Assembly: GCA_001430755.1 (NCBI GenBank)
Contig: CP013062.1
Location: 60,001-92,000, forward strand
Length of the DNA: 32,000 nt
Reading direction: 5' to 3'
Source of the DNA: Candidatus Peribacter riflensis
GTDB lineage: Bacteria; Patescibacteriota; Gracilibacteria; Peribacterales; Peribacteraceae
Shown: positions 8,987 through 32,000 of the stretch, piece after piece
How the letters are laid out: the number at the start of each line of letters is the position of its first letter
Position numbering within the stretch: position 1 is the first letter of the stretch
The notes under the pieces: model-generated
Database searches by the model: none
Told to the model about the DNA's origin: nothing
Seen by the model: only the letters and a program-made list of their open reading frames with translations
Made by a program: the position numbers and the translations under genes

Positions 8987-11320
<2,334 letters not shown>

Positions 11321-16518: not shown

Positions 16519-18780
16519 ATGACTGACCTCCCCGCCAGCATCGAGGCGTATCTTACGGAAGCAGGATTCTCTGCGACCGAGCTCCTGGTGCTCAAAAAGC
16601 TCCTCGAGGGCGAGGCGCTGACACTCAGGGAACTGGCCGCCAAAACGGGCAAATCGACGGGGGTTCTGGATCTCGCCGTGAAGAAGCTCCTCAGCCGCCG
16701 CATCATCAGCCGCGAGATGGTGAATGACACGCCCAAGATGCTCCTCAAGTCTCTGGATGCGGTCATGAAGTGGGTGAAGGACGATACCGAGGAGAAGCTC
16801 AAAGCCATGAAGAGCCGTGCCCTGGACTTCGAATCGTTCATTGCGTCGCTCAAGCGCGAGAGCAAGCGGCCCGAGATGGAGTACTTCGAGGGCGAGGAGG
16901 GCATCAAGAAGGCCTACATGAAGCTCCTGGAGGTTTCTGTGAAGGAGTTTCTGCACTACCGCCCCGTCACGATGAAGGAGGAGGAAGACCCGTTGGCGGC
17001 CTTCCGCGTGCAGTACTTCCGCGAGCGGCACAAGCGGAGCATTTTCTCGCGCGTCCTGGCGCCCTCCACCTCTCTCGGGCGGCGCTTTCAGTCGCGCGAC
17101 GTGTTCGAGTATCGCGAGACACAGCTCATCAAAGACGAGGAGTTCCCCATCACGTTCGAAAAGATCATCGTCGGCGAGACGGTGGCGTGCTTCAACCATG
17201 CGGAGCAGCGCGCGTGCTTTCTCAAGTATCCCGAATTGGCGCACACCGAACGCACCATGTTCGAGCTGCTGTGGCGCCGTGCCAAAGAGCCGCCCACGCA
17301 GCCGCAGACCGTGGCTCTCACCCTCCCGCAATCTTCCCAGCCGGTGATCTCTTTGAGCACGCGGTCACTCTCGAGCCTGCGTGAGTTCTTCTTAAGCCGC
17401 AATAGCGTGGCGCTCTTCTTTGGGGGTGCCGTGCTGGCTGCGGGCATTACCTATGGGCTGTGGTGGCATACGTATAATTTGAATCGCGAGCGGGTGCGGG
17501 AACGGGCCATGGCGATTGCCGCCACTGCCGCCATGGAGTTTGATGCCAGAGACATCGAACAGCTTCGTACGAAGGAGGATGTGAAGAAGCCGGAGTTTAT
17601 GAAGCTCGTGACGCACCTGCGCGAGATCAAGACACGCAATGAGAACATCCGATTTGTCTACATCGATCGTCCCATTGAGGCGAAGGACGCATCATGGGCA
17701 GTGGTTGCAGATGCCGATTACGGCACGCCGGATGAGGATCTGGACGGGGACGGTATTATCGAGGATTTTGAGCAGCTCACTATGCCCGGGCAGATCTATC
17801 CACATGTGGATCCGCTCTTTCAGGAGCGACTCCATAGACCGGCCGCAGACTTTCTCAGTGACGAATGGGGTGCATACTGCGATGCATCAGCTCCTATTTT
17901 CGATGCGGAAGGGAAGGCCATAGCTGTTCTTTTCGTCGATATCGATCTGCAGCAGGTGCGGGATCTCACTTCACAGTCATTCAAGGTAGCCTATGTCTTC
18001 CTTGGGCTTTTCCTCTTTTTCGTCTTCATCCGTCTCGCGGCCTTCAATCGGCCGCTTTTCTTTGAGTTGCTCAAGGTGTTGCGATCTAGGGGAGTGCTGA
18101 TGATTTTGGGGGTGTGTGCGCTGATTTCGCTTGGGGTGACGTGGGGGATGTATCGGTATAGCTACAATCTCAATCTCCAGCGTGTACGTGAGCAGGTAAC
18201 GGCAATCGCTGCAACCGCTGCACCAGAGTTTGATGTGGAAGACTTGGATCAGCTTCATACGTGGCATGATGTTGAAAAAACCGTTTACAAAAAAGTGGTG
18301 GCACAGCTGCAGGATATTCGGAAGAGAAATGCGACGGTGAGATATGTCTACATATTGCGGGCAACGGATGATCCGTATTTCTACGAGTTCGTGGCAGATG
18401 CAGATTCACTCAATATTCGATCATTTTCAGATTTTTCCGAAGATGGACTGAGGAATGACATCAGCCCACCTGGATATTCATATTATGATTATGAGGGAGT
18501 CAAATCCTCACTTATGAAGGCTATGCATGAACCATTTGCAGATCATCAGATGGTTTACGATTTATGGGGAGAATGGATTTCGGGGCATGCGCCTATTAAA
18601 GACAAGAATGGCAAAATGAATGCAATTATTGGAGTTGATGTAGATGCGAGTAAGGTTGACGCCCTATCAAGGCAGGCATTCTCACCAATTTTTCTGTTTG
18701 CCAGCCTGTTTTCTCTTTTGGTTTTTGTACGATTTATCACATTCGTGAGTCCGCGATTTATAAAACATCTTCGGAGATAA
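16519..18780 (+). CDS. TrmB-family HTH regulator fused to two tandem TM-bounded extracytoplasmic (Cache/PDC-like) sensor domains
   Basis: N-terminus LTEAGFSATELLVLKKLLEGEALTLRELAAKTGKSTGVLDLAVKKLLSRRIISRE (wHTH), followed by a TrmB-type effector-like region. Four hydrophobic segments (~17401-17470, ~17986-18045, ~18091-18150, ~18687-18745) bracket two homologous ~170-aa domains that share FD..D(I/L)(E/D)QL, (I/V)R(F/Y)VYI, (F/V)VADAD, WG, API.D..GK and VD(I/V)D. ATG 16519 preferred over GTG 16507. Confidence 0.8.
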   Translation: MTDLPASIEAYLTEAGFSATELLVLKKLLEGEALTLRELAAKTGKSTGVLDLAVKKLLSRRIISREMVNDTPKMLLKSLDAVMKWVKDDTEEKLKAMKSRALDFESFIASLKRESKRPEMEYFEGEEGIKKAYMKLLEVSVKEFLHYRPVTMKEEEDPLAAFRVQYFRERHKRSIFSRVLAPSTSLGRRFQSRDVFEYRETQLIKDEEFPITFEKIIVGETVACFNHAEQRACFLKYPELAHTERTMFELLWRRAKEPPTQPQTVALTLPQSSQPVISLSTRSLSSLREFFLSRNSVALFFGGAVLAAGITYGLWWHTYNLNRERVRERAMAIAATAAMEFDARDIEQLRTKEDVKKPEFMKLVTHLREIKTRNENIRFVYIDRPIEAKDASWAVVADADYGTPDEDLDGDGIIEDFEQLTMPGQIYPHVDPLFQERLHRPAADFLSDEWGAYCDASAPIFDAEGKAIAVLFVDIDLQQVRDLTSQSFKVAYVFLGLFLFFVFIRLAAFNRPLFFELLKVLRSRGVLMILGVCALISLGVTWGMYRYSYNLNLQRVREQVTAIAATAAPEFDVEDLDQLHTWHDVEKTVYKKVVAQLQDIRKRNATVRYVYILRATDDPYFYEFVADADSLNIRSFSDFSEDGLRNDISPPGYSYYDYEGVKSSLMKAMHEPFADHQMVYDLWGEWISGHAPIKDKNGKMNAIIGVDVDASKVDALSRQAFSPIFLFASLFSLLVFVRFITFVSPRFIKHLRR

Positions 18781-18848
18781 TTAAACTCAAGGATTTAGCT
18801 TTCAATATTGGCTTTATTGATTACATTGTTCTGAACATTAAGTGCAAA

Positions 18849-19817
18849 TTACTTTCCAAGAACGTAAGAGAAAATTAATGGAGCAACAATTGTTGCATCG
18901 GAATTGATCACAAAACTTGGAGTGTTCTTGGTGACTTTGTGCCAAGTGATCTTCTCTTTCGGAGTACAGCCAGAATAGGAACCGTAAGATGTAGTAGAGT
19001 CAGTAATCTGAGCATAATATGCCCAATGGGGACATTCCTTGCCCAAATCTAGAAGAATACAAGGCACACAACACAGGGCAAAATCTCCGGCAGTACCACC
19101 ACCGATTTGGAAAAAACCAACAGATGATTTTTTGCTTATTTCCTGATACCACTGCATCAAGTGTGCGAACTGTTCTGTGCCGTGTCTGATTGCAGCATGG
19201 CTTCGGATAGTTCCATCCATTACACGAGCAGCAAAAATGTTGCCCAAAGTTGAATCTTCCCAACCAGGGGAGTAGATCGGAATTTTCTTTTCCCATGCCG
19301 CAGCCATCCAAGAATGCGCAAAAGGTACCTGATTAATGTTATTTAGAAATCCCTCATCAAACAGCCGGAAGAGATACTCGTACGGGAAGTGGTGTTCTTC
19401 TTTTTTTGCAGCTTCTGCCCAGTATTCAATAAGTTTGTTTTCTACTTTTCGCATGACATTTTCTGGAATACATACATCAGTGACGCGATTCATGCCACGG
19501 TCGCGCAAGGCCTCCTCATCATCGGGCGTGAGATTGTCATAATCTGGAACCATTTCATACTCGTTATGAGCGATAAGGTTGAAGATGTCCTCTTCCAGAT
19601 TTGCAGCTGAGCAGGAAATAGCATGAATCTTGTCTTCCCGGATCATTTCTGCAAGTGAAATGCCGATTTCGGCCGTACTCATTGCTCCTGCCATAGCAAG
19701 GAACATTTTCCCTCCTTTCTTTTCATGGTCTACCCATGCCCGCGCAGCCCGCAGCGTTGTAAACGCGTTGAAGTGCTTGAAGTTTTCTTCCATAAATGAG
19801 GAGATTGGCTTCGGCAT
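18849..19817 (-). CDS. deoxyhypusine synthase family protein (homospermidine-synthase-like)
   Basis: 322 aa. RDRGMNRVTDVCIPENVMRKVENKLIEYW matches the DHS INRIGN..VPNENY region. FFQIGGGTAGDF matches the GGG loop. The C-terminal YSGCTPKEKITWHKV keeps the catalytic-Lys context (SWGK in eukaryotic DHS). Confidence 0.85.
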   Translation of the reverse strand: MPKPISSFMEENFKHFNAFTTLRAARAWVDHEKKGGKMFLAMAGAMSTAEIGISLAEMIREDKIHAISCSAANLEEDIFNLIAHNEYEMVPDYDNLTPDDEEALRDRGMNRVTDVCIPENVMRKVENKLIEYWAEAAKKEEHHFPYEYLFRLFDEGFLNNINQVPFAHSWMAAAWEKKIPIYSPGWEDSTLGNIFAARVMDGTIRSHAAIRHGTEQFAHLMQWYQEISKKSSVGFFQIGGGTAGDFALCCVPCILLDLGKECPHWAYYAQITDSTTSYGSYSGCTPKEKITWHKVTKNTPSFVINSDATIVAPLIFSYVLGK

Positions 19818-19885
19818 GATTTATTGGGAACTATTGCAAATGATAGAACTCGAATACTAGTTTGCAACTTCCAAATTAGTATTAA

Positions 19886-20347
19886 TCACAGGATCTGTTG
19901 CATTTGTTCTACTTTCTCTCCAGATCCTCGGATATCCAGTACTGATCGTTTGTCACCCGAAGAATTATGGGAATTGATTGCACGATTTATAAAAGTGGCC
20001 TGCCACAAACCTAAAGGTAGGTGCTTTGTTAACGTGATCAGCGCCACCTTCCAGTCAAATCCTTGGCAGCTATATATATCCATGTGAATATGTGGTTGCC
20101 CATTTGGTTCATCGAAATAATGACCAGAGATGTGGCTTGTTGTAATTGGTTGTAGGAATGACCAACCAGGTGCGAGAAGATCGGTTGCAGGATAGATTTC
20201 CAATGGACCGAGCTTCTTCATTTTTAATGTACTCAGCAAATCTTCAATGAGTGCGTGAATCATTTTCTCATTTTCTGAGTTATCGAATGGCTTTAGCAAA
20301 TGTGCATCCAAGATAAAATGGTGATGAAGCAGAGCAATACTAGACAT
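19886..20347 (-). CDS. S-adenosylmethionine-decarboxylase-fold (SpeH-like, pyruvoyl) protein, divergent paralogue 1
   Basis: GWSFLQPITTSHISGHYFDE...HIHMDIYSCQGFD aligns by eye with the prokaryotic AdoMetDC core (..VVISESHLTIHTWPE...IDLFTCG). ATG 20347 has ggagaa 11 nt upstream. The track start 20383 is a TTG. Confidence 0.72.
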   Translation of the reverse strand: MSSIALLHHHFILDAHLLKPFDNSENEKMIHALIEDLLSTLKMKKLGPLEIYPATDLLAPGWSFLQPITTSHISGHYFDEPNGQPHIHMDIYSCQGFDWKVALITLTKHLPLGLWQATFINRAINSHNSSGDKRSVLDIRGSGEKVEQMQQIL

Positions 20348-20443
20348 AAGGTGAAATTCTCCATATATCGGATAAGAAGTCAATTATATTGTGACGACGA
20401 ACTGGTACTGGCTTTACGAATTAACTCGGTTTACATTGCTATT

Positions 20444-20869
20444 ATGAAATATATCTGGGCGTCAATATTACTATTGTTACTGGTTGGAGGGGGGTTTGCT
20501 TTTTCAAGTTATTTAAGACTTGCCCATGAAGAGCAATTAGTTGCCACAGCTCAGTTAAGGAACAGAGACCGGAAGGAACATTTACGAACATTAGTATCTG
20601 CTATTAAGCAGTATATGAGTGATCACAACAAACAAGCGCCAGGAATTTTGGATAGTACTCAAAAAAATATTTGTAGAACTGACGTTAAGGTTGATTGCAC
20701 AGATTTAGTAGACCTTTCCAAGCTTACAGAAGAATATCTTGTTACTCTTCCAATTGATCCATTGGTTTCATCGGGCGCAAGTACAGGTTATGCAATTCAA
20801 ATAGATGGTAATATTATCACCGTCAAAGCCATATATGCGGAGGACGAAGATGTATCAATTTCTTTCTAA
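20444..20869 (+). CDS. membrane-anchored pilin/pseudopilin-like protein without a canonical prepilin cleavage motif
   Basis: 141 aa from ATG 20444. Anchor MKYIWASILLLLLVGGGFAFSSYL, then LRNRDRKEHLRTLVSAIKQYMSDHNKQAPG, which resembles the R(D/N)..R..DL..(I/L)..A(I/L)..Y..D helix of type IV pilin-like proteins. There is no G/FTLIE processing site. Confidence 0.5.
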   Translation: MKYIWASILLLLLVGGGFAFSSYLRLAHEEQLVATAQLRNRDRKEHLRTLVSAIKQYMSDHNKQAPGILDSTQKNICRTDVKVDCTDLVDLSKLTEEYLVTLPIDPLVSSGASTGYAIQIDGNIITVKAIYAEDEDVSISF

Positions 20870-20881
20870 TTATGGTATAAT

Positions 20882-22330
20882 TTGTTTGTGAAACTTATAC
20901 AAACAACAGCTATCTGGTTTCTTGATAAAGGCAAGAGTTATTTGGTGCTAATTCTCTGTGGGCTCATTGCTGGAGCAGCAACGATTTCTCTATTTGGATA
21001 TACAAGAGATCTGCTGCTTACGCGCCTAGAGGACAAACTTATTGCGATCAGTTCGACTGCTTCACTTTTATTTGATGAGAAAGAAATCGAGCAGTTGCAT
21101 GAATTGGGTGGAGAGAGTGTCAATACTGATTTGTATCGGAAGACAGTATTAACATTGCGGAAAATTAAACGAAGAAATTCGGACATCAGATATGTCTACA
21201 TTTTTCACAGGACAGATGATCCGAGCCTACTCAAATTTGTGGCTGATGCAGATATGATCGCTCTGAAGACAGAATTGAATTTCACCGGTGAATCACAAGA
21301 TGAGAGTGATTTTCCCGGTACCGATTACGATGTGACCGAATCTCCAGGATTGCTTAGTGGTAATGCGTTCATCGAACCTACGATTGATGATCTTTATCAG
21401 GATGACTGGGGTTACGTGTTTTCAAGTTATGCACCTATCCGAGATAACCAAGGGGTGCCTTCCGATTCAATTATTGGTATCGATGTTGATGTAACACAAT
21501 ATCTCAATAATGTCTTTGCCACGCTCATACCTTTTACTGCGTTTATTGTGGCGTTATTCATTCTACTTGGTCTTCTAACTTTCTTCCTCCTTAGGATATG
21601 GGGATCGCGTGTGGACCTCCTCAAAGACCTCGACCGCCAAAAAGACGAACTCATCAGTATCGTCAGTCACCAACTGGCAACACCGGTGACCTCGGTGAAG
21701 TGGTACCTCGAGATGCTGCTGGATGGAGATTCCGGTGAACTGAACGAGGAACAGAAGAAACAGCTCATGACCATGCAGGGGGTGACAGAGGACCTTGTGG
21801 ACCTGGTGGGTATGATTCTGGATGTTTCGCGCATTCAGCTGGGCCGCATGAAGGTGGATCGCGGGCCGTTGGATCTGGGCACCTTCTTTACCGAAGTGCT
21901 GGCCGTGATCGAGCCCAAGGCGACCATGAAGAAGCAGCAATTCATCAAGAATATCCCGGGCAAGCTGCCCGTGGCGTCGCTGGATAAGCGTCTGATGCGC
22001 ATGACGCTCGAGAACCTGCTCAGTAATGCCGTCAAATACACGCCGGAGGGCGGAAAGGTGGAGCTGAATGTCACGCTCACAGATCACACGCTCCGCTACG
22101 AGGTGAAGGATACGGGTTGCGGCATCCCCAAGGAGGATCAAGAGAAGATCTTCGGCAAGCTCTTCAGGGCCACCAACGTGCGCAATACGGAGGGCAATGG
22201 TCTCGGCCTCTTCGCCGCCAAGGGCGCCGCCGAGGCGCAGGGTGGCAAAGTGTGGTTCGAGAGCGAATCGGGTAAAGGCACCACGTTCACCGTGGAAGTG
22301 CCGCTTGAGGAGGTGAAGGAGCAGGAGTAA
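20882..22330 (+). CDS. sensor histidine kinase with a periplasmic domain homologous to the TrmB-fusion sensor domains
   Basis: Two TM segments flank a domain containing FDEKEIEQLH, IRYVYIF, FVADAD, DDWGY, APIRDNQG and GIDVDV. H-box ISIVSHQLATPVTSV. HATPase motifs NLLSNAVKYTP and GNGLGLFAAKGAAEAQGGKVWFESESGKGTTFTVEVP. Start is TTG 20882 or GTG 20888. TGgTATAAT at 20873-20881 ends immediately upstream of TTG 20882, so a leaderless GTG-20888 start is possible. Confidence 0.9.
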   Translation: MFVKLIQTTAIWFLDKGKSYLVLILCGLIAGAATISLFGYTRDLLLTRLEDKLIAISSTASLLFDEKEIEQLHELGGESVNTDLYRKTVLTLRKIKRRNSDIRYVYIFHRTDDPSLLKFVADADMIALKTELNFTGESQDESDFPGTDYDVTESPGLLSGNAFIEPTIDDLYQDDWGYVFSSYAPIRDNQGVPSDSIIGIDVDVTQYLNNVFATLIPFTAFIVALFILLGLLTFFLLRIWGSRVDLLKDLDRQKDELISIVSHQLATPVTSVKWYLEMLLDGDSGELNEEQKKQLMTMQGVTEDLVDLVGMILDVSRIQLGRMKVDRGPLDLGTFFTEVLAVIEPKATMKKQQFIKNIPGKLPVASLDKRLMRMTLENLLSNAVKYTPEGGKVELNVTLTDHTLRYEVKDTGCGIPKEDQEKIFGKLFRATNVRNTEGNGLGLFAAKGAAEAQGGKVWFESESGKGTTFTVEVPLEEVKEQE

Positions 22331-22412: not shown

Positions 22413-22530
22413 ATGAAATTATTTGCGGCGAAGCGTTGGGTGGCTCTGACGGGCCCCAACGCTGGAGCCGCACCGCTCAAGGGAAAAGAGAGCTCATGAG
22501 AGAAAAACCGCAGGTTTGTCTCTCATGACT
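22413..22530 (-). repeat. two-hairpin structured element, copy 2 (begins 1 nt after the ABC ATPase stop codon; terminator-like)
   Basis: The minus strand reads tcatgagaga-c-aaacc-tgc-ggttt-t-tctctcatga, gctctcttttcccttgagcggt, gcggc-tcc-agcgttggg-gcccgtcagagcca-cccaacgct-tc-gccgc, aaataattt. In my hand alignment 90 of 104 columns are identical to copy 3. Confidence 0.7.
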
Positions 22531-26554: not shown

Positions 26555-26676
26555 TTCATGAGAGACAAACCTACGGTTTTTCTCTCATGAGCTCTCTTTT
26601 CCCTTTAGCGGTGTCGCTCAGCTACGGGTCCCGTCAGAGCCACCCGCAGCTTCGCGACGATTATTGAAATAATTTG
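26555..26676 (+). repeat. two-hairpin structured element, copy 3 (orphan, inverted relative to copy 2)
   Basis: tcatgagaga-c-aaacc-tac-ggttt-t-tctctcatga (26556-26590), gctctcttttccctttagcggt, gtcgc-tc-agctacggg-tcccgtcagagcca-cccgcagct-tc-gcgac (26613-26658), then gattattg aaataattt. Confidence 0.7.
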
Positions 26677-26721: not shown

Positions 26722-27390
26722 TCACTTTAGCAGCGCGAATGACTTCGTGAACGCGTCGAAGTAGCGCAGGTTGCGATCGAAGCGGTCTGCGATCGCGCTA
26801 AATTCCAGCACGATGATGCGGTTGCCCGAGGGGATGCGGATCTGGCGGACTTTGCACGTCTTGCTCTGGCAGCGGTGTGTGAACGTACTCACGAGCGTTT
26901 CTTTCTTTTGCCAGGTGGAACCCTCGGATGACAGGGCTTCGGGCATCAGGAGAAAACGCCCTCCCTCGAATTCTTCCGCGTAGAATGGGGCGCGCGAGAA
27001 GTTCTCGAAATCCTGCCGCATGCGGTCCATTGTCGCGGCCTTGCCGAGAGGCGCGATGCCCACCGAGAGCGTCGTCCCCAGATAGGCGGGGCTTTCAAAA
27101 CGCGTCCAGTCGTATTGCTGCCGCGTAGTGCCTGTTTCTTTGTCTTCGTACGTGAGGCTCCAGTCTTCGGGATACTCTACGCTCCACCCTCCGAGCACAT
27201 CGCGGTACGCGCGTAGTGGAGTAGAAGGCAGGGTCGGAATCTTGATCCGCATGTCCTTGCGCGCTTTCGCCTGCGTGGCGCGGTAAGTTGGCCGCGACGA
27301 TGAGGCCTGCGGAAGGAACCGGGCGGATGCCATAACGGGGCAACCGAGGAGGAAGATGACGGAGAGGGCGAGAAAGGAGGAGGGACGCAT
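26722..27390 (-). CDS. putative lipoprotein, function unknown
   Basis: The signal peptide MRPSSFLALSVIFLLGCP carries a lipobox-like LLGC. The 222-aa mixed alpha/beta-looking mature part has no recognised motif. Confidence 0.65.
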   Translation of the reverse strand: MRPSSFLALSVIFLLGCPVMASARFLPQASSSRPTYRATQAKARKDMRIKIPTLPSTPLRAYRDVLGGWSVEYPEDWSLTYEDKETGTTRQQYDWTRFESPAYLGTTLSVGIAPLGKAATMDRMRQDFENFSRAPFYAEEFEGGRFLLMPEALSSEGSTWQKKETLVSTFTHRCQSKTCKVRQIRIPSGNRIIVLEFSAIADRFDRNLRYFDAFTKSFALLK

Positions 27391-27408: not shown

Positions 27409-27957
27409 CTACGGGGCTGCCTTTCCGAAGGAGAAGGAGTTTCGTAATTCGGGGTACTTTTCCCAGGCTTCAAACTTCAGTGTGCATCCCGCACGGATAA
27501 CGGCGTTACGGATAGGGAGGCAATCCGCAGCGCTACGATTTCTGTGCGCCCGCAGCAAATCACACCAATCCAGGCGTAGAGGATCAGATTGCGGTTTACT
27601 GCACTCGTCCCATTCAAAGAATCCAGCATCCATGTGATCTTCGTATTCCTGCGCAGTGACGTCATTGATGCAGCTCAGGCCATACTCGCTCGGCATCAGC
27701 AGTGCGCAGGCGGAGGGATCATGAGAGAGTTCTGCATACTCTCGTATGCATCTATTCCTCAATTCTCGAGTCGTTGGCCTGAACCAAGGATCCAGTGTGA
27801 CAAAAAGATAACAATCTTTGGCAGGCCTGTTTTCATTCACCAGTTTCATTGGAAGCTCCTCCGGCGAGCGGGCATGTTCGTAATAGAATGTGTGTAATCC
27901 GACGAAACCAACTGCAATGAGGACGACAGTGATGATGAGGAGCCTGTGTCGATGCAT
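27409..27957 (-). CDS. membrane-anchored Cys-rich protein, paralogue P1 (DPSAC..LLMPS.YG.SC family)
   Basis: TM anchor LLIITVVLIAVGFVGL, 8 Cys, shared motif HDPSACALLMPSEYGLSCIND. ATG 27957 (GTG 27969 in the track). Confidence 0.7.
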   Translation of the reverse strand: MHRHRLLIITVVLIAVGFVGLHTFYYEHARSPEELPMKLVNENRPAKDCYLFVTLDPWFRPTTRELRNRCIREYAELSHDPSACALLMPSEYGLSCINDVTAQEYEDHMDAGFFEWDECSKPQSDPLRLDWCDLLRAHRNRSAADCLPIRNAVIRAGCTLKFEAWEKYPELRNSFSFGKAAP

Positions 27958-28062
27958 AAAATATGACACGAAAAGACGGATTAGTAATTGGTACTTGTGC
28001 TTTCTCCTTCCTCCAAAGGAATTTGATCATAGATATGCGTATGATGTGGGATGGTGCTATGA

Positions 28063-28695
28063 CTACTCAATTCGGTATGCGTAGAGGATATCGTCTATCC
28101 ATGATCCATAAAAAAACATGGTTGAAGAATAGAGTTTTTTCTGCCCATTAGAAGCAATATTTCCAAGCCCAATTTCATACCAGTCCCTTCTCCAACGCAT
28201 TCCACTGCTTGGCCATACCTTTTTCCATCCCGTGGAAGACAATTCTCTGTCGTAGAATTGTGCAATTCCCTCAAAAGGTGTTTCATCCTCAAAAGTAATA
28301 GAAAGCATCGGTTCATTGTCAAAACCATCTCCGCCGTTGTACAACTGTTTTTTTTCGATGGAAATGGCGTAGTGTGGCATCAAATTTTCAGCGATTTTTT
28401 CTCGCTGCAATTGCAAATACTGCTGTTTGGCTTTGTGGCTGAATACGGTTAGACCGATGAGTAGCGTGAAGAGAGCGAATGACAGAACAAACCTAAATGG
28501 CGGCAGACGTCCACGCCATCCGAGCAAAGCACCAACTATTACTGATAACAACGGTATCCAGAACAGAACCCACAACAGTATTGGATGCTCGAATGGGAGA
28601 GTAAGTGCAAGAAGCGCTAGGCCGAACCCAAGGAAACCACCAAACACGGCGCTTCTCCTGCGATTTCCTACAGTTCTTGTTACGTTTGGAATCAT
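28063..28695 (-). CDS. 3-TM membrane protein with C-terminal soluble domain
   Basis: 210 aa. Positively charged N-terminus (GNRRRS), three hydrophobic segments, then a ~115-aa domain. Its ATG (28695-28693) overlaps the upstream gene stop (ATGA), suggesting translational coupling. Confidence 0.7.
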   Translation of the reverse strand: MIPNVTRTVGNRRRSAVFGGFLGFGLALLALTLPFEHPILLWVLFWIPLLSVIVGALLGWRGRLPPFRFVLSFALFTLLIGLTVFSHKAKQQYLQLQREKIAENLMPHYAISIEKKQLYNGGDGFDNEPMLSITFEDETPFEGIAQFYDRELSSTGWKKVWPSSGMRWRRDWYEIGLGNIASNGQKKLYSSTMFFYGSWIDDILYAYRIE

Positions 28696-29345
28696 GACCC
28701 GTAAGAAATGAGACTTGAAATATAACGAAGAACGAAGGGTGCCGCATAATTATCGATGGTACTGTGCGTTTGCGAATCCTGTATGCCATCGCAATCAATC
28801 TGTATCATCGGGATTGATCCATTATTATTCATTGCCATGCCATTAAGTGTACCATCTGAGGCGATGCCAACATTTGATTGGTAAATATTTAGCATAGTAC
28901 ATGTGTTTACCGGAATAAATGGTTCCGGGAAACCACAAGCAAGGTTTCCTTGGGTAACTGCATCAACATATGCCGATCCAGTTATCGTGATATTGCCGTG
29001 ATTTTTCGCTATCCATTGACTGAATTTATGCACCATTCCTCCGCCCCAGCTGTAACCAACAAGAATGATATTTGTGAGTTGCGGGTTATTCTGAAGTCTG
29101 GATTCTACGAAGGTTTGCGCATTTTGCAGGGCTTCATCGGCAGTGGGTGACATAATCTCAAACCAAATCAGATCCCAGCACTCGTTCGCTGGCCTCCCGT
29201 TCTTTACGAGATACTCGGCCAGATCCCACGGTGCCCAATTGATGTAGGGCCGGTGCCAGCCAAAGATTGTCATCCAACCATAGACGATCAGAGCTAAGAC
29301 AGTCAGGGCGAGAGTGCCAATGAGGTATGGGGCACGGAATCTCAT
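28692..29345 (-). CDS. chimeric protein: 69-aa anchor module of the Cys-rich family fused to a 5'-truncated lipase-like alpha/beta-hydrolase segment (GYSWG)
   Basis: Residues 1-69 are identical to P3. From residue 70: DEALQNAQTFVESRLQNNPQLTNIILVGYSWGGGMVHKF (GxSxG nucleophile elbow at Ser99), later IDCDG and SQTHSTID. Only ~28 aa precede the nucleophile, so the oxyanion-hole strands seen in the large lipase (VWVVVHG..VATVDW) are missing. Confidence 0.65.
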   Translation of the reverse strand: MRFRAPYLIGTLALTVLALIVYGWMTIFGWHRPYINWAPWDLAEYLVKNGRPANECWDLIWFEIMSPTADEALQNAQTFVESRLQNNPQLTNIILVGYSWGGGMVHKFSQWIAKNHGNITITGSAYVDAVTQGNLACGFPEPFIPVNTCTMLNIYQSNVGIASDGTLNGMAMNNNGSIPMIQIDCDGIQDSQTHSTIDNYAAPFVLRYISSLISYGS

Positions 29346-29373
29346 ACTAGTTTCCTAGGATAGGGGAACCATT
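29138..29373 (-). repeat. 236-bp direct repeat, copy X (234/236 identical to 30601-30836)
   Basis: Hand alignment gives a constant offset of 1463 nt. There are two mismatches, both synonymous on the minus strand (TCA/TCG Ser, CTG/CTA Leu). Confidence 0.95.
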
Positions 29374-30010
29374 ATTTTCTTACGAGTGCACGGACTCCAA
29401 CCAGACAAGCTGACCGGATATTTGCGTTTTCGATCTTCGAGCACGCTTCCATGTTGATTTTTTTCTTTGCCACTTCGTGGTAGCACTGATCGATGAAATC
29501 TCGTGTGGCTACGAGAGAGGAGCAATCCTTCTTTTCGTCATAGAAGGCGATGCGTGCAACTGCACAGCAGGTGTTATTTTGTGTGGCAGCGTCACCATGC
29601 ACACACTGTGCCAATGGAGCAATGATTCCATTGCCTCGGACTTCAGGCGGCTCTTTGAAATCAAACAAGCACGGCTGCTTGTCTGTTGCTGCCCCCAAGC
29701 ATGACCATCCGTAACTGCTCGGCATCAGAAGCTCGCAGGCAGAGGGGTCGTGCGTGAGCTTGGCGTAGATGTAGATGCAGAGCCTTCTTTTTTCGGCCAA
29801 GGAAGGCCCCATAGTCGGCATGGTCTGTTGAAGTTTTCTACAGCGCGTGGGATCACCCTTCTCTGAAGCAATGGCCTGCGCAAGCTCTGAGGGCGAGATA
29901 TCGACGGGATAGCCAATCATCTGGAGCACTAAACCGCGTCCAATGAGAAGGACTATGCCGATGACGGGCAAGGCGGCAACTATGCCGAGAACAAGCAGGA
30001 GCTTCCGCAT
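29372..30010 (-). CDS. membrane-anchored Cys-rich protein, paralogue P2
   Basis: TM anchor LLLVLGIVAALPVIGIVLLIG, 12 Cys. PSELAQAIASEKGDPTRC and RRLCIYIYAKLTHDPSACELLMPSSYGWSCLGA parallel P3. Confidence 0.75.
   Translation of the reverse strand: MRKLLLVLGIVAALPVIGIVLLIGRGLVLQMIGYPVDISPSELAQAIASEKGDPTRCRKLQQTMPTMGPSLAEKRRLCIYIYAKLTHDPSACELLMPSSYGWSCLGAATDKQPCLFDFKEPPEVRGNGIIAPLAQCVHGDAATQNNTCCAVARIAFYDEKKDCSSLVATRDFIDQCYHEVAKKKINMEACSKIENANIRSACLVGVRALVRK
29689..29734 (-). repeat. 46-nt perfect repeat inside P2 (identical to 30493-30538 in P3)
   Basis: ctgcccccaagcatgaccatccgtaactgctcggcatcagaagctc in both genes. It encodes ELLMPSSYGWSCLGA. Confidence 0.9.
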
Positions 30011-30133
30011 GTGACGTGCTTAGGGGAGGTACGATCCGGGGCCAGAGGATGGCGGCTGGATCTCTCTGTACACGATGAATATTGTTACGGGGTGGCCTGT
30101 GAAACGACGCAGAGAGAAAAGCACGAGTGGTTA

Positions 30134-30808
30134 CTATCGAGCGAAAGACCAATTCTGAGAGTATTGCTGCCACGCATTAATTTCCATTTCACAAAGCTTT
30201 CGTTTCTTTTCATTTGGCATCTTGGCACAGAGAGAAGGATCTTTCATTTTAAAGGCATATCGTCTCTCGCAGATTTCCCGCAAGCCAGGCGGATCGGTGG
30301 AGATCTTGTCGCACTCATACACGTTCGGCAACGAAGCAGAACGCTCTTCATGGCACCAATCGCGGAGGATTCGTTGATCATAGGCATTACAATCATCGAT
30401 GCCCAAGTTTGGCGAGAAGACGTTATATGCTCCGCAGTTTATTTTCTCTTTGGTGCTTCCACAGCCAACGCCTTCCCAGAGTTTGCCCTTCACTGCCCCC
30501 AAGCATGACCATCCGTAACTGCTCGGCATCAGAAGCTCACATGCGGAGGGATCTTTGGCGGTTTTGGCGTACGAATAAATGCACGATGCTCTTTGTTCTG
30601 CGGCAGTGGGCGACATAATCTCAAACCAAATCAGATCCCAGCACTCGTTCGCTGGCCTCCCGTTCTTTACGAGATACTCGGCCAGATCCCACGGTGCCCA
30701 ATTGATGTAGGGCCGGTGCCAGCCAAAGATTGTCATCCAACCATAGACGATCAGAGCTAAGACAGTTAGGGCGAGAGTGCCAATGAGGTATGGGGCACGG
30801 AATCTCAT
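30134..30808 (-). CDS. membrane-anchored Cys-rich protein, paralogue P3
   Basis: TM anchor YLIGTLALTVLALIVYGW, 12 Cys. ASCIYSYAKTAKDPSACELLMPSSYGWSCLGA. ATG 30808 lies 1 nt after the stop of the upstream lipase gene. Confidence 0.75.
   Translation of the reverse strand: MRFRAPYLIGTLALTVLALIVYGWMTIFGWHRPYINWAPWDLAEYLVKNGRPANECWDLIWFEIMSPTAAEQRASCIYSYAKTAKDPSACELLMPSSYGWSCLGAVKGKLWEGVGCGSTKEKINCGAYNVFSPNLGIDDCNAYDQRILRDWCHEERSASLPNVYECDKISTDPPGLREICERRYAFKMKDPSLCAKMPNEKKRKLCEMEINAWQQYSQNWSFAR
30493..30538 (-). repeat. 46-nt perfect repeat inside P3 (identical to 29689-29734)
   Basis: See the partner entry at 29689-29734. Confidence 0.9.
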
Positions 30809-30836
30809 ACTAGTTTCCTAGGATAGGGGAACCATT
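30601..30836 (-). repeat. 236-bp direct repeat, copy Y
   Basis: Covers the last 8 sense codons plus stop of the large lipase gene (NGSPILGN*), 1 nt, and codons 1-69 (plus 1 nt) of P3. Confidence 0.95.
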
Positions 30837-32000
30837 TTCATCTTGCGAATAGAACTGGTAGGCGTTTGCTATCCATGCCTGCTTTCCGTTATCCGCTCCA
30901 CTCGTGAATGTCGTCAACGACGGGTTGGCATAGAAGCAGCCTTCCCAATTATTCTCCCGCGCGCTGAATTCCGCAGCATTGGAACGGAGATTGGGCAGGG
31001 AAAATCGGTTTGCTATTACATCGCTAGGATTCTCCTTCTGTCTCCTCAAGAGTCCTGAGAAGAGAGATACGGCAAATCCGTGTTCATTGTAGGCATCGCG
31101 GAGTTCATCGGCAGTTTCAATTCCAAGCGCTGTAAAATAGTGTTGTGAAGCGACCATCTGTGCGGCAGCGGCGTCCCACGATCCCTGTTCGTAATTTTCG
31201 GGAGCGACGATGCTGAAAGCGTACTGCGCCGTGAGTGCGCGATTCCTGTCTCCGAATGTGCTTGAATGGAACGCGTACGAGTTCGCCGCGATGTTGGCGA
31301 ATGAGAAGTTGGGATCCTCGATTCCTTTGTACTTTCCTCCACCCAGCAGCTTGGAATCCGCCGCCGGATCCAGCGCGATCAAGGTCTGTACTCCGCCCGG
31401 TGTCCGCTTGCCAATTTCGTATGCCACGTATGCACCCCAGCTGTGGCCCACGAGGCAGATATTCTGCGTGCTGAAGCCAGCCGCCTGCAATTGATTGGTA
31501 ACCCATGTGCCCACGCTCTCAATCCAGCGTGAACCTTCCAGGCCGATGGGCGTGGCATTATCAGCTGCCCCGTCTCGCCAGTCCACGGTGGCGACTTGTG
31601 CGCCCAATGCATGAAGATTCTTAGTCAATTCCGCGATCTGACTACTCTCTTCACTATTCCCTCTCCCATGCACCACCACCCAGACGGGCTTGGAGGGATC
31701 GAGTTCTGACACTTTGTTGTAGTCAGTGATTCGTTGTCCGTTTTCAAACTCCGCCACACTCATGCTCACCGGCATTGCCACATCCCTCCCTTCGATACTG
31801 ACCATCCCCTCAATCTTCTGCGACCGATAGGGTTTGATTTCATACTGCACCGAAGTTGCAGAAGGCGCACAGTCAAATGTTGAATCGTCCCTCACGGTGA
31901 TCGTATATGTCCCCGGGAGCAGTGCGAGACTGACAGATTCCGCCGAGGCCACGGACTTGCCGGATGTGTAGGGTCCGACGGTGTGCCCGTCCACAGTAGT
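30810..32000 (-). CDS. lipase-family alpha/beta hydrolase domain protein (5' end beyond the right edge of the window)
   Basis: KPVWVVVHGRGNS, VATVDW, ICLVGHSWGAYVAYEIG (GHSxG), TLIALDPA and AFHSSTFG follow the pancreatic-lipase-family order GHSLGAH...LDPA...H. The track start 31994 is a GTG, and the two codons upstream of it (to position 32000) are sense codons, so the gene probably continues upstream. Confidence 0.8.
   Translation of the reverse strand, partial: TTVDGHTVGPYTSGKSVASAESVSLALLPGTYTITVRDDSTFDCAPSATSVQYEIKPYRSQKIEGMVSIEGRDVAMPVSMSVAEFENGQRITDYNKVSELDPSKPVWVVVHGRGNSEESSQIAELTKNLHALGAQVATVDWRDGAADNATPIGLEGSRWIESVGTWVTNQLQAAGFSTQNICLVGHSWGAYVAYEIGKRTPGGVQTLIALDPAADSKLLGGGKYKGIEDPNFSFANIAANSYAFHSSTFGDRNRALTAQYAFSIVAPENYEQGSWDAAAAQMVASQHYFTALGIETADELRDAYNEHGFAVSLFSGLLRRQKENPSDVIANRFSLPNLRSNAAEFSARENNWEGCFYANPSLTTFTSGADNGKQAWIANAYQFYSQDENGSPILGN

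Follow-up and report, generated by a model that had tools for sequence, protein, structure and literature searches.

The stretch of DNA analysed here (the window) comprises 32,000 nt of the genome of Candidatus Peribacter riflensis (contig CP013062.1, positions 60,001 to 92,000 of the forward strand), a bacterium of the candidate phyla radiation (CPR; Peribacteria) from groundwater of the Rifle aquifer (PMC4736985). Towards its right end lies a cluster of genes for a giant lipase and for cysteine-rich (Cys-rich) membrane-anchored proteins, in which a 236-bp segment is present twice as a near-perfect direct repeat. One copy spans the junction between the lipase gene and the Cys-rich gene that follows it, P3; the other joins the same lipase end and the first 69 codons of P3 (the module) to a fragment of a different hydrolase gene, forming the chimeric open reading frame (ORF) PX. 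Taking the explanation as a whole, we consider it probable that this is a young segmental duplication inside a polymorphic-toxin-like island. The repeat copies and the genes most directly concerned are listed below. The genes for the lipase, P3, P2, PX, the membrane protein and two proteins listed further on (P1 and a 222-aa protein) are all on the minus strand.

30601..30836, minus strand: repeat copy Y, the source; last 8 lipase codons and stop (NGSPILGN, then stop), 1 nt, and P3 codons 1–69 (+1 nt).
29138..29373, minus strand: repeat copy X, derived; 28-nt non-coding relic of the lipase 3' end, then PX codons 1–69.
28692..29345, minus strand: PX, 217-aa chimeric ORF; P3 module (aa 1–69) and truncated type-2 alpha/beta-hydrolase (aa 70–217; GYSWGG, YVDAV, THSTID).
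29139..29145, minus strand: fusion point, a 7-nt microhomology CACTGCC (Thr-Ala codons) common to P3 and the hydrolase gene (represented by L041).
30810..32000, minus strand: 3' part of the lipase gene (1770-aa secreted protein, cut by the window end), with a C-terminal pancreatic-lipase-type alpha/beta-hydrolase domain (GHSWG).
30134..30808, minus strand: P3, 224-aa membrane-anchored Cys-rich putative partner, directly after the lipase.
29372..30010, minus strand: P2, 212-aa Cys-rich paralogue with a diverged module, between the repeats.
28063..28695, minus strand: 210-aa multi-pass membrane protein, its start overlapping the PX stop by 4 nt; GC 44%; a conserved putative partner of the type-2 hydrolase.

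Copies X and Y, offset by 1463 nt, differ at 2 of 236 positions (29148 T against 30611 C, and 29304 C against 30767 T). Both mismatches fall on third codon positions and are synonymous (Ser TCA/TCG and Leu CTG/CTA), and residues 1–69 of the PX and P3 ORFs are identical. Outside the repeat, identity drops to background within ~12 nt of the upstream edge and ~5 nt of the downstream edge, and a 236-bp match of this kind is not expected to arise by chance in 32 kb. The module encodes a transmembrane (TM) helix and the start of an ectodomain. In X the 28 nt that precede it are non-coding apart from a 2-nt overlap with the stop codon of P2 (29372–29374); they hold a Shine–Dalgarno-like AGGAAA and match the lipase end of a related species (L008) at 27 of 27 positions. 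An earlier reading of the window, made from its letters alone and called here the sequence-only reading, had described two synonymous differences, a copy Y made of the last 8 lipase codons with stop, 1 nt and P3 codons 1–69, and a copy X headed by a 28-nt relic overlapping the P2 stop by 2 nt; direct comparison of the copies agrees with the first statement and the gene map with the other two.

The direction of copying can be read from loci on 23 genome contigs of other Peribacteria (these loci, and contigs of Ca. Peribacter riflensis itself, are labelled L0xx). Y is the source, since in L008 and L017 the same lipase ending is followed by a Cys-rich gene with this module. The C-terminal region of the L008 lipase is 80% identical in amino acids, and the final 117 nt of the gene are 94% identical. 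After the ending ...QFYSQDENGSPILGN and stop there is 1 nt, then a Cys-rich gene with 81% identity to P3 over residues 1–69. In L017 the layout is the same, with 72% identity in both lipase and module. This orthologous layout supports the sequence-only reading, which had taken Y as the source, the module as native to the Cys-rich family and foreign to the hydrolase gene, and the event as recent. In P0003, P0005, P0006 and >228 family members the module runs straight on into the Cys-rich domain; the full-length hydrolase relatives (P0004, L009, L041) have different upstream sequences; P2 has, as had been stated, a diverged module, and that of P1 is strongly diverged too. A recent date likewise fits the identity of 99.2–99.6% and the sharp edges.

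The sequence-only reading needs refining in four respects: the nature of the segment behind the module, the usual recombination point of the family, the architecture of the cluster, and the recurrence of lipase relics before partner genes. It had the module continue into a lipase-like segment, and the fusion is indeed in frame, but the segment is the 5'-truncated, low-GC tip of a different hydrolase and no whole gene. It represents the last ~148 residues of a minimal alpha/beta-hydrolase domain of ~210 residues, termed type 2 here. Residues 67–213 of PX match residues 1101–1256 of a 1260-aa FG-GAP/Laminin-G protein in L009 at 40%, and residues 66–300 of P0004 (308 aa) match residues 1007–1256 of the same protein at 46%. 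An exhaustive HMMER search located the type-2 domain at the extreme C-terminus of proteins of 849–1373 aa and also in some ORFs of 290–400 aa. The closest complete type-2 hydrolase is that of L041 (80% aa, 82% nt), after which comes a homologue of the membrane protein of the window, 66% identical. The GC content of third codon positions (GC3) is 65% in the module, 38% in the hydrolase fragment and 53–75% in neighbouring genes, with the step exactly at the repeat edge; fragment and membrane-protein gene have 42–44% GC and GC3 values of 38–44%. Homology to L041 begins 7 nt inside the repeat, where P3 reads ...SPTA before AEQ and the hydrolase ...GITA before SEAL. With CACTGCC common to P3 and the hydrolase at the fusion point, the in-frame join of module and hydrolase appears to have been microhomology-mediated.

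The AlphaFold model of P0004 is a six-stranded minimal alpha/beta hydrolase, for which the best matches in the PDB are lipases/esterases and a MARTX ABH effector. PX starts past strands 104–109 and 136–139 of this model, leaving two of the six beta-strands out, and has no equivalent of P0004 residues 100–153, which include helix 122–132 and the invariant YGSxQ (Y110-G111-S112-Q114). The GYSWG, YVDAV and HSTID motifs are retained; a complete alpha/beta-hydrolase core of sheet, elbow, acid, His and oxyanion hole is not found in PX. With two strands and the invariant YGSxQ missing, PX is predicted to be unable to fold as an active enzyme and is most likely an enzymatically dead by-product.

A membrane protein follows a type-2 tip in the window, in L041 and in L009. 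The homologue of the window protein stands after a complete hydrolase gene in L041 and L042, these two loci being the whole basis for the pairing of the hydrolase with this membrane-protein homologue, and BLAST finds no similarity between the 210-aa protein of the window and the membrane protein of 199 aa that follows the tip in L009. The PX fragment and the membrane protein read as an orphan type-2 cassette, truncated further. The L041 locus (L041:3-5654) itself holds a LipFull-like giant gene, a stop, a separate 396-aa ORF with a complete type-2 tip, and the homologue of the membrane protein; at its N-terminus the 396-aa ORF has a motif (IHVGQTGT..D.V.REF...) that recurs in an ORF of L013 (4696–5046).

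The two-copy structure is genuine and no assembly artefact, as it is present in at least four complete genomes and in independent assemblies. The window is 100% identical to contig MFYN01000072.1 of GCA_001789115.1. PX, P2 and P3 are consecutive in at least 4 complete 1.25-Mb Ca. Peribacter riflensis genomes (e.g. PeribacterA2_0096/0097/0098) and in one third-party metagenome-assembled genome, always annotated 'hypothetical protein'; PX and P2 are each on contigs >1 Mb in 6 collection blocks. The two-copy form occurs independently in NCBI, ENA and JGI assemblies, and PX and P2 are also in Logan assemblies. The only fixed difference between the copies is at repeat position 225, which is A in X and G in Y in every assembly. 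Position 69 is A/G polymorphic in both copies, with (Y,X) haplotypes A/A, A/G and G/G, a pattern that would be expected from occasional sequence exchange (gene conversion) between them. Some short-read contigs end inside the repeat (L005 and L039 start in Y, L040 ends in X), the 236 bp probably being longer than the reads, whose length we assume to be ~150 nt.

That the repeats would allow deletion of the interval between them had also been proposed, and one contig, L003 (GCA_003500185.1), has exactly the predicted 1463-bp deletion, with the lipase directly followed by PX. Its junction combines the upstream flank of Y, the downstream flank of X and the X allele at position 225. Among the 24 contigs read the deletion form is found in L003 only, which otherwise equals the window. 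Two scans of the metagenome_contigs collection, which does not hold these contigs, gave no match to a flank–repeat–flank pattern for normal, deletion and duplication junctions or to the 42-nt fusion junction. The predicted product is therefore on record, but as L003 is a third-party reassembly, a collapsed repeat loop explains it as well as a real variant does. We considered the L003 form as the ancestor and rejected it: it already holds the non-native fusion of module and hydrolase, and the junction of P2 stop and lipase relic is not derivable from it. A nonsense mutation suspected in the P1 gene of L003 is merely a gene-calling difference. The genome paper mentions a 'direct repeat of about insert size' (PMC4736985); this is probably not the repeat of the window, as it would exclude ~3 kb.

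The origin of X has to account for two novel junctions, P2 stop to lipase relic and module to hydrolase, and two histories could do so most simply. In one, a stretch of 1463 bp, reaching from the 3' end of the lipase gene to the end of P2, would first have been duplicated in tandem; a deletion mediated by microhomology would then have joined codon 69 in the second copy of P3 to the interior of the orphan hydrolase. In the other, a break in the orphan hydrolase would have been repaired in one step by a 236-nt patch templated on Y. The graft would have given the hydrolase fragment a ribosome-binding site, a start codon and a membrane anchor, of which it otherwise had none, and the copies would now serve as substrates for homologous recombination, allowing the 1463-bp deletion and inter-copy gene conversion. 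The mechanism is ordinary (segmental duplication, microhomology-mediated fusion, repeat-mediated deletion). No new kind of element is seen here; events like this typify fast-evolving gene clusters of the toxin/immunity-like sort. What is less usual is the setting, a polymorphic-toxin-like lipase system that lacks annotation and is confined to Peribacteria, with partners that are two-part mosaics.

Judged by gene content and order, the locus has a polymorphic-toxin-like architecture with a variable C-terminal hydrolase, an adjacent partner and orphan cassettes; orphan modules are among the defining features of polymorphic toxin systems (PMC4436062). Exchange of tips between scaffolds is seen in P0017, which has a LipFull-like N-terminus (49% over 450 aa) and a type-2 hydrolase tip, and in L009, where the type-2 tip is on an FG-GAP/LamG scaffold; it also occurs on other proteins of 850–1370 aa. 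An adjacent downstream partner gene is usual: in 22 Peribacteria loci the Cys-rich gene lies within 450 nt of the lipase tip in 26 of 27 cases, and at 637 nt in the last, the loci having been retrieved via the Cys-rich gene and hence forming a biased sample for this adjacency. Orphan tip-plus-partner cassettes are present in L013, L016, L019, L026 and L028, where a second, 5'-truncated lipase tip with its own Cys-rich gene comes directly after the first pair. The L013 orphan begins immediately behind the stop codon of the gene before it and lacks the N-terminal (trafficking) region, and in L013, L016 and L028 the main and orphan copies share DNA repeats of 88–93% in the pre-tip region EIKPY..QKIEG..SIE. 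Arrays of 4–6 Cys-rich genes occur in L021 and L029, and in the window P3, P2 and P1 read as an array of partners. In L033 and L015 there is no more than the lipase, one Cys-rich gene and the 222-aa protein, so that the array in the window is either an expansion or an ancestral state since reduced in these loci. On this pattern the lipase and hydrolase tips are putative toxins or effectors, and the Cys-rich and membrane proteins putative immunity proteins or partners.

The lipase domain matches Pfam PF00151 (7e-12) and the pancreatic lipases of the PDB (3e-9). The protein is present at full length in L001 (L001:3224-8536; 1770 aa), and Pfam finds Laminin_G, FG-GAP and lipase domains only, with no known trafficking or secretion domain; a recognised N-terminal domain of this type, usual in polymorphic toxins, was thus not detected with Pfam. 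An N-terminal motif, LE(S/Q)LExRQ(M/L)(M/L)S, is common to the 1770-aa lipase protein, the 1260-aa protein of L009, P0007 and P0008, and may be an export signal of these giant proteins. On the window's own contig, upstream of the window, an N-gap lies inside the lipase gene (L002:5525-5561), as a result of which the lipase is called as 972 aa there and as 1770 aa in other assemblies. The AlphaFold2 model of P3 (predicted local distance difference test score, pLDDT, 94) has a TM helix and a mainly helical, Cys-stapled ectodomain. It has no fold match in the PDB, foldases included (best E 0.9), and Pfam has no match for P3, P2, P1, the membrane protein or the 222-aa protein. A 165-aa ORF antisense to P3 (30011–30508, plus strand), called in L043, is almost certainly spurious.

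The Cys-rich family comprises >228 proteins restricted to Peribacteria/Peregrinibacteria and has no Pfam domain. Forty members were split at the position of P3 residue 69 and the halves compared separately, which revealed mosaics in several loci. A P3-type module (72%) is joined to a P1-type C-domain (84%) in L017, a P2-type module (68%) to a P1-type C-domain (59%) in L016_5411, and a P2-type module (69%) to a P3-type C-domain (48%) in L018; in L013 a P3-type C-domain (76%) follows a module that is unrelated (34%), and in L008 the module is that of P3 (81%) and it is the C-domain (32%) that is unrelated. All these switches lie within the DNA coding for C..YAKLTKDPSACELLMPSxYG.SC, which is 74–100% identical over 85–95 nt among the paralogues of every locus. 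The usual recombination point of the family is this conserved hinge, at residues ~85–102, rather than codon 69. Module identity rises and falls with that of the upstream lipase; no such relation holds for the C-domain. Physical linkage is the simplest explanation. A contig of 1.4x coverage (ERZ4902887; L045:1-131) carrying a hybrid gene, P3 on the 5' side of the hinge and P2 on the 3' side, may be chimeric and was not used as evidence. The hinge and the remaining features of the cluster are as follows.

30493..30620, minus strand: P3 hinge DNA (...C..YAK..KDPSACELLMPSSYGWSC), with copies at 29689–29816 (P2) and 27688–27738 (P1).
30011..30076, minus strand: 3'-terminal relic of a second lipase type (...EIQPPSSGPGSYLP, then stop) in the P3–P2 spacer; 87% over 38 nt to the L018 lipase 3' end, E 7e-6.
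27409..27969, minus strand: P1, third Cys-rich paralogue; genes with a P1-type C-domain directly follow the lipase in L034 and L017.
26722..27390, minus strand: 222-aa secreted protein at the conserved end of the locus; orthologues in L033 (82.5%) and L015 follow the lipase and a single Cys-rich gene.

The 28-nt relic in X is one of several such scars, as shown by the two cases that follow. The relic in the P3–P2 spacer ends ...PPSSGPGSYLP and stop, 9 nt before the ATG of P2; the same peptide end is found in L016 and L018, where lipases with this ending precede P2-type modules. P2 therefore also came in a lipase-plus-partner cassette, the lipase of which was later deleted. In a different species, L029, two adjacent Cys-rich genes share a 100%-identical direct repeat of ~300 nt (L029:9967-10270 and 10705-11008), made of ~22 nt of lipase 3' end (19 nt and the stop), 2 nt and the first ~94 codons. 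It ends in the hinge, beyond which the C-domains of the two genes are unrelated in register. A 1.17-kb perfect tandem repeat in L021 also ends in the hinge. These observations permit a wider proposal, which we put forward tentatively and regard as possible rather than likely: the last ~25 nt of the lipase together with the anchor module may stay constant in a cassette system, in which variable Cys-rich ectodomains, and at times fragments of toxins, would continually be re-assorted after a secreted lipase by recombination just upstream of the partner start codon and at the DPSACELLMPSxYG hinge. Were this so, it would be a polymorphic partner/immunity system in which diversification is aimed at the partner gene, beyond the toxin alone, and PX would be an off-target product or a newly expressed anchored decoy.

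Two other accounts of the repeat itself have to be weighed. The second copy or the chimeric junction could be a short-read mis-assembly across the repeat, and the contigs that break within it (in Y in L005/L039, in X in L040), the one assembly that lacks the interval between the copies, and a repeat length probably in excess of the assumed ~150-nt reads are what such an error would leave. Different pipelines, however, gave the same two-copy form in the ENA, JGI and NCBI assemblies, and at least four 1.25-Mb genomes that were finished by hand have it too; the copy-specific single-nucleotide polymorphism (SNP) at position 225 and the distinct flanks recur in every assembly; and the fusion is in frame and coincides with the GC3 step and with the start of the L041 homology. 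We regard mis-assembly as extremely improbable. Alternatively PX could be an old chimera, its near-identity to P3 being due to recent gene conversion of a pre-existing diverged module by Y. The A/G SNP at position 69 segregates in both copies among strains, and the analogous repeat in L029 fades gradually within the hinge in the manner of a conversion tract. In the window, by contrast, both edges are abrupt, with unrelated flanks beyond 5–12 nt, the tract includes 28 nt of lipase coding sequence for which no homologous counterpart would be expected after P2, and PX is absent from the nearest relatives, L008, L033 and L015. An old chimera is thus improbable, and a young duplication remains our preferred account.

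The roles of the products are also open to other interpretations. PX might be a selected functional fusion, either because the module recognises the lipase and PX acts as extra immunity or decoy, or because the anchored hydrolase fragment works. The identity of the module tracks that of the upstream lipase (81%/80%, 72%/72% and <=34%/<=47%) and that of the C-domain does not; the graft brought a Shine–Dalgarno-like site and a start codon; and the ORF is intact in all assemblies with its Ser, Asp and His motifs. Yet physical linkage explains the correlation equally, the invariant Cys56 of the module is separated in PX from the invariant downstream cysteines of the family, e.g. C76, two core strands and YGSxQ are missing from the fragment, and the conservation is that of one near-clonal population only, all of which makes a functional PX decidedly unlikely. 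For the Cys-rich proteins, a role as lipase-specific helpers (foldase- or chaperone-like, or adhesins) would turn the locus into an enzyme-plus-helper operon and leave the rearrangement unchanged. In the lipase/Lif operons of Pseudomonas and Burkholderia an anchored helical foldase is encoded directly downstream of the lipase gene, and the N-terminally anchored, mostly helical ectodomains encoded here 1 nt after the lipase are similar in this respect; the C-domains swap freely relative to the lipase, and attachment roles were suggested for Cys-rich surface proteins in the genome paper (PMC4736985). Set against this are the lack of structural similarity between the P3 model and any PDB entry, foldases among them, and three features regarded as hallmarks of toxin/immunity islands (PMC4436062): arrays of 4–6 paralogues behind one lipase (L021, L029), 5'-truncated tip-plus-partner cassettes, and the swapping of tips on a shared N-terminal scaffold. 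We give the helper role a small but appreciable chance, and take the putative toxin/immunity reading as the better description of the locus.

Several observations weigh against a young duplication in a toxin/immunity-like island. The giant protein has no classical signal peptide. The C-domain of the Cys-rich proteins does not co-vary with the adjacent lipase tip (in L008 the lipase is 80% and the C-domain 32% identical, and in L017 a lipase of 72% is followed by a P1-type C-domain), which argues against a simple cognate-immunity role for this domain. The PX ORF is intact in every assembly, and only its lack of fold elements points to a loss of function. One population does not suffice to recover in what order, and in how many steps, the locus was rearranged. 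The sole contig with the deletion, which comes from a third-party reassembly and equals the window otherwise, may owe its form to the collapse of a repeat loop.

The locus resembles known systems to varying degrees. It shares with CdiA-CT/CdiI, Rhs-CT/RhsI and MafB/MafI (PMC4436062) a large secreted protein with a conserved scaffold and a variable C-terminal enzymatic tip, a small partner gene immediately downstream, recombination and deletion between repeats, and downstream 5'-truncated tip-plus-partner cassettes that have a homologous stretch in common with the main gene. It differs from them in its CPR host, in having no recognised trafficking domain of contact-dependent inhibition (CDI), Rhs, type VI secretion (T6SS) or type VII secretion (T7SS) systems, and in its lipase/esterase tips. 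The block repeated here is the last 28 nt of the toxin and the N-terminus of the partner, not the pre-toxin region, and its product fuses partner and toxin fragments; the partners here are themselves mosaic at an internal hinge. The T6SS Tle/Tli pairs and TslA/TilA of the Staphylococcus aureus T7SS (PMC13560087, PMC4436062) likewise combine an alpha/beta-hydrolase lipase toxin with several paralogous envelope immunity genes, but there is no sequence or fold relation to Tli or TilA, P3 being without a PDB match, and no T6SS or T7SS context. Lif operons have the TM-anchored helical extracytoplasmic protein directly downstream of the lipase gene; the Cys-rich proteins show no sequence or fold similarity that would place them with Lif, and Lif operons are not known for multi-copy arrays, orphan cassettes or tip polymorphism, all of which occur here. 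As a rearrangement, the locus is like other chimeric genes formed by segmental duplication and microhomology, with a near-identical sharp-edged direct repeat, 7 nt of microhomology at the junction and an in-frame fusion of unrelated coding sequences. The deletion form is like other deletions between short direct repeats, its product being exactly one repeat unit shorter; mechanistically it is nothing unusual, and the interest lies in the locus.

The repeat offers a clean and datable case of new genes and deletions arising in a conflict-type island, here in a CPR bacterium that has not been cultivated. It further brings to light a system that had escaped annotation: all members are labelled 'hypothetical protein', and the partner has neither a Pfam family nor a PDB fold match; the genome paper noted only that strain variation was concentrated in large exported proteins (PMC4736985). 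The system appears to consist of giant proteins with swappable lipase/esterase tips, each followed by membrane-anchored, two-part mosaic Cys-rich partners. If the toxin/immunity reading holds, it would be a candidate weapon of Peribacteria against host or competitor membranes, and a rare case in which the partner gene, beyond the toxin, evolves by cassette exchange.

Elsewhere in the window, a 64-nt inverted repeat (22465–22528 and 26556–26619; 94% complementary, extending to ~101 nt at 88%) brackets genes for an ABC-2 transporter, an AdoMetDC-like protein and an HD-domain protein. The region 18000–21500, which holds a deoxyhypusine synthase gene (18849–19817), has a GC content of 38–47% against 55–63% around it and may be acquired DNA.

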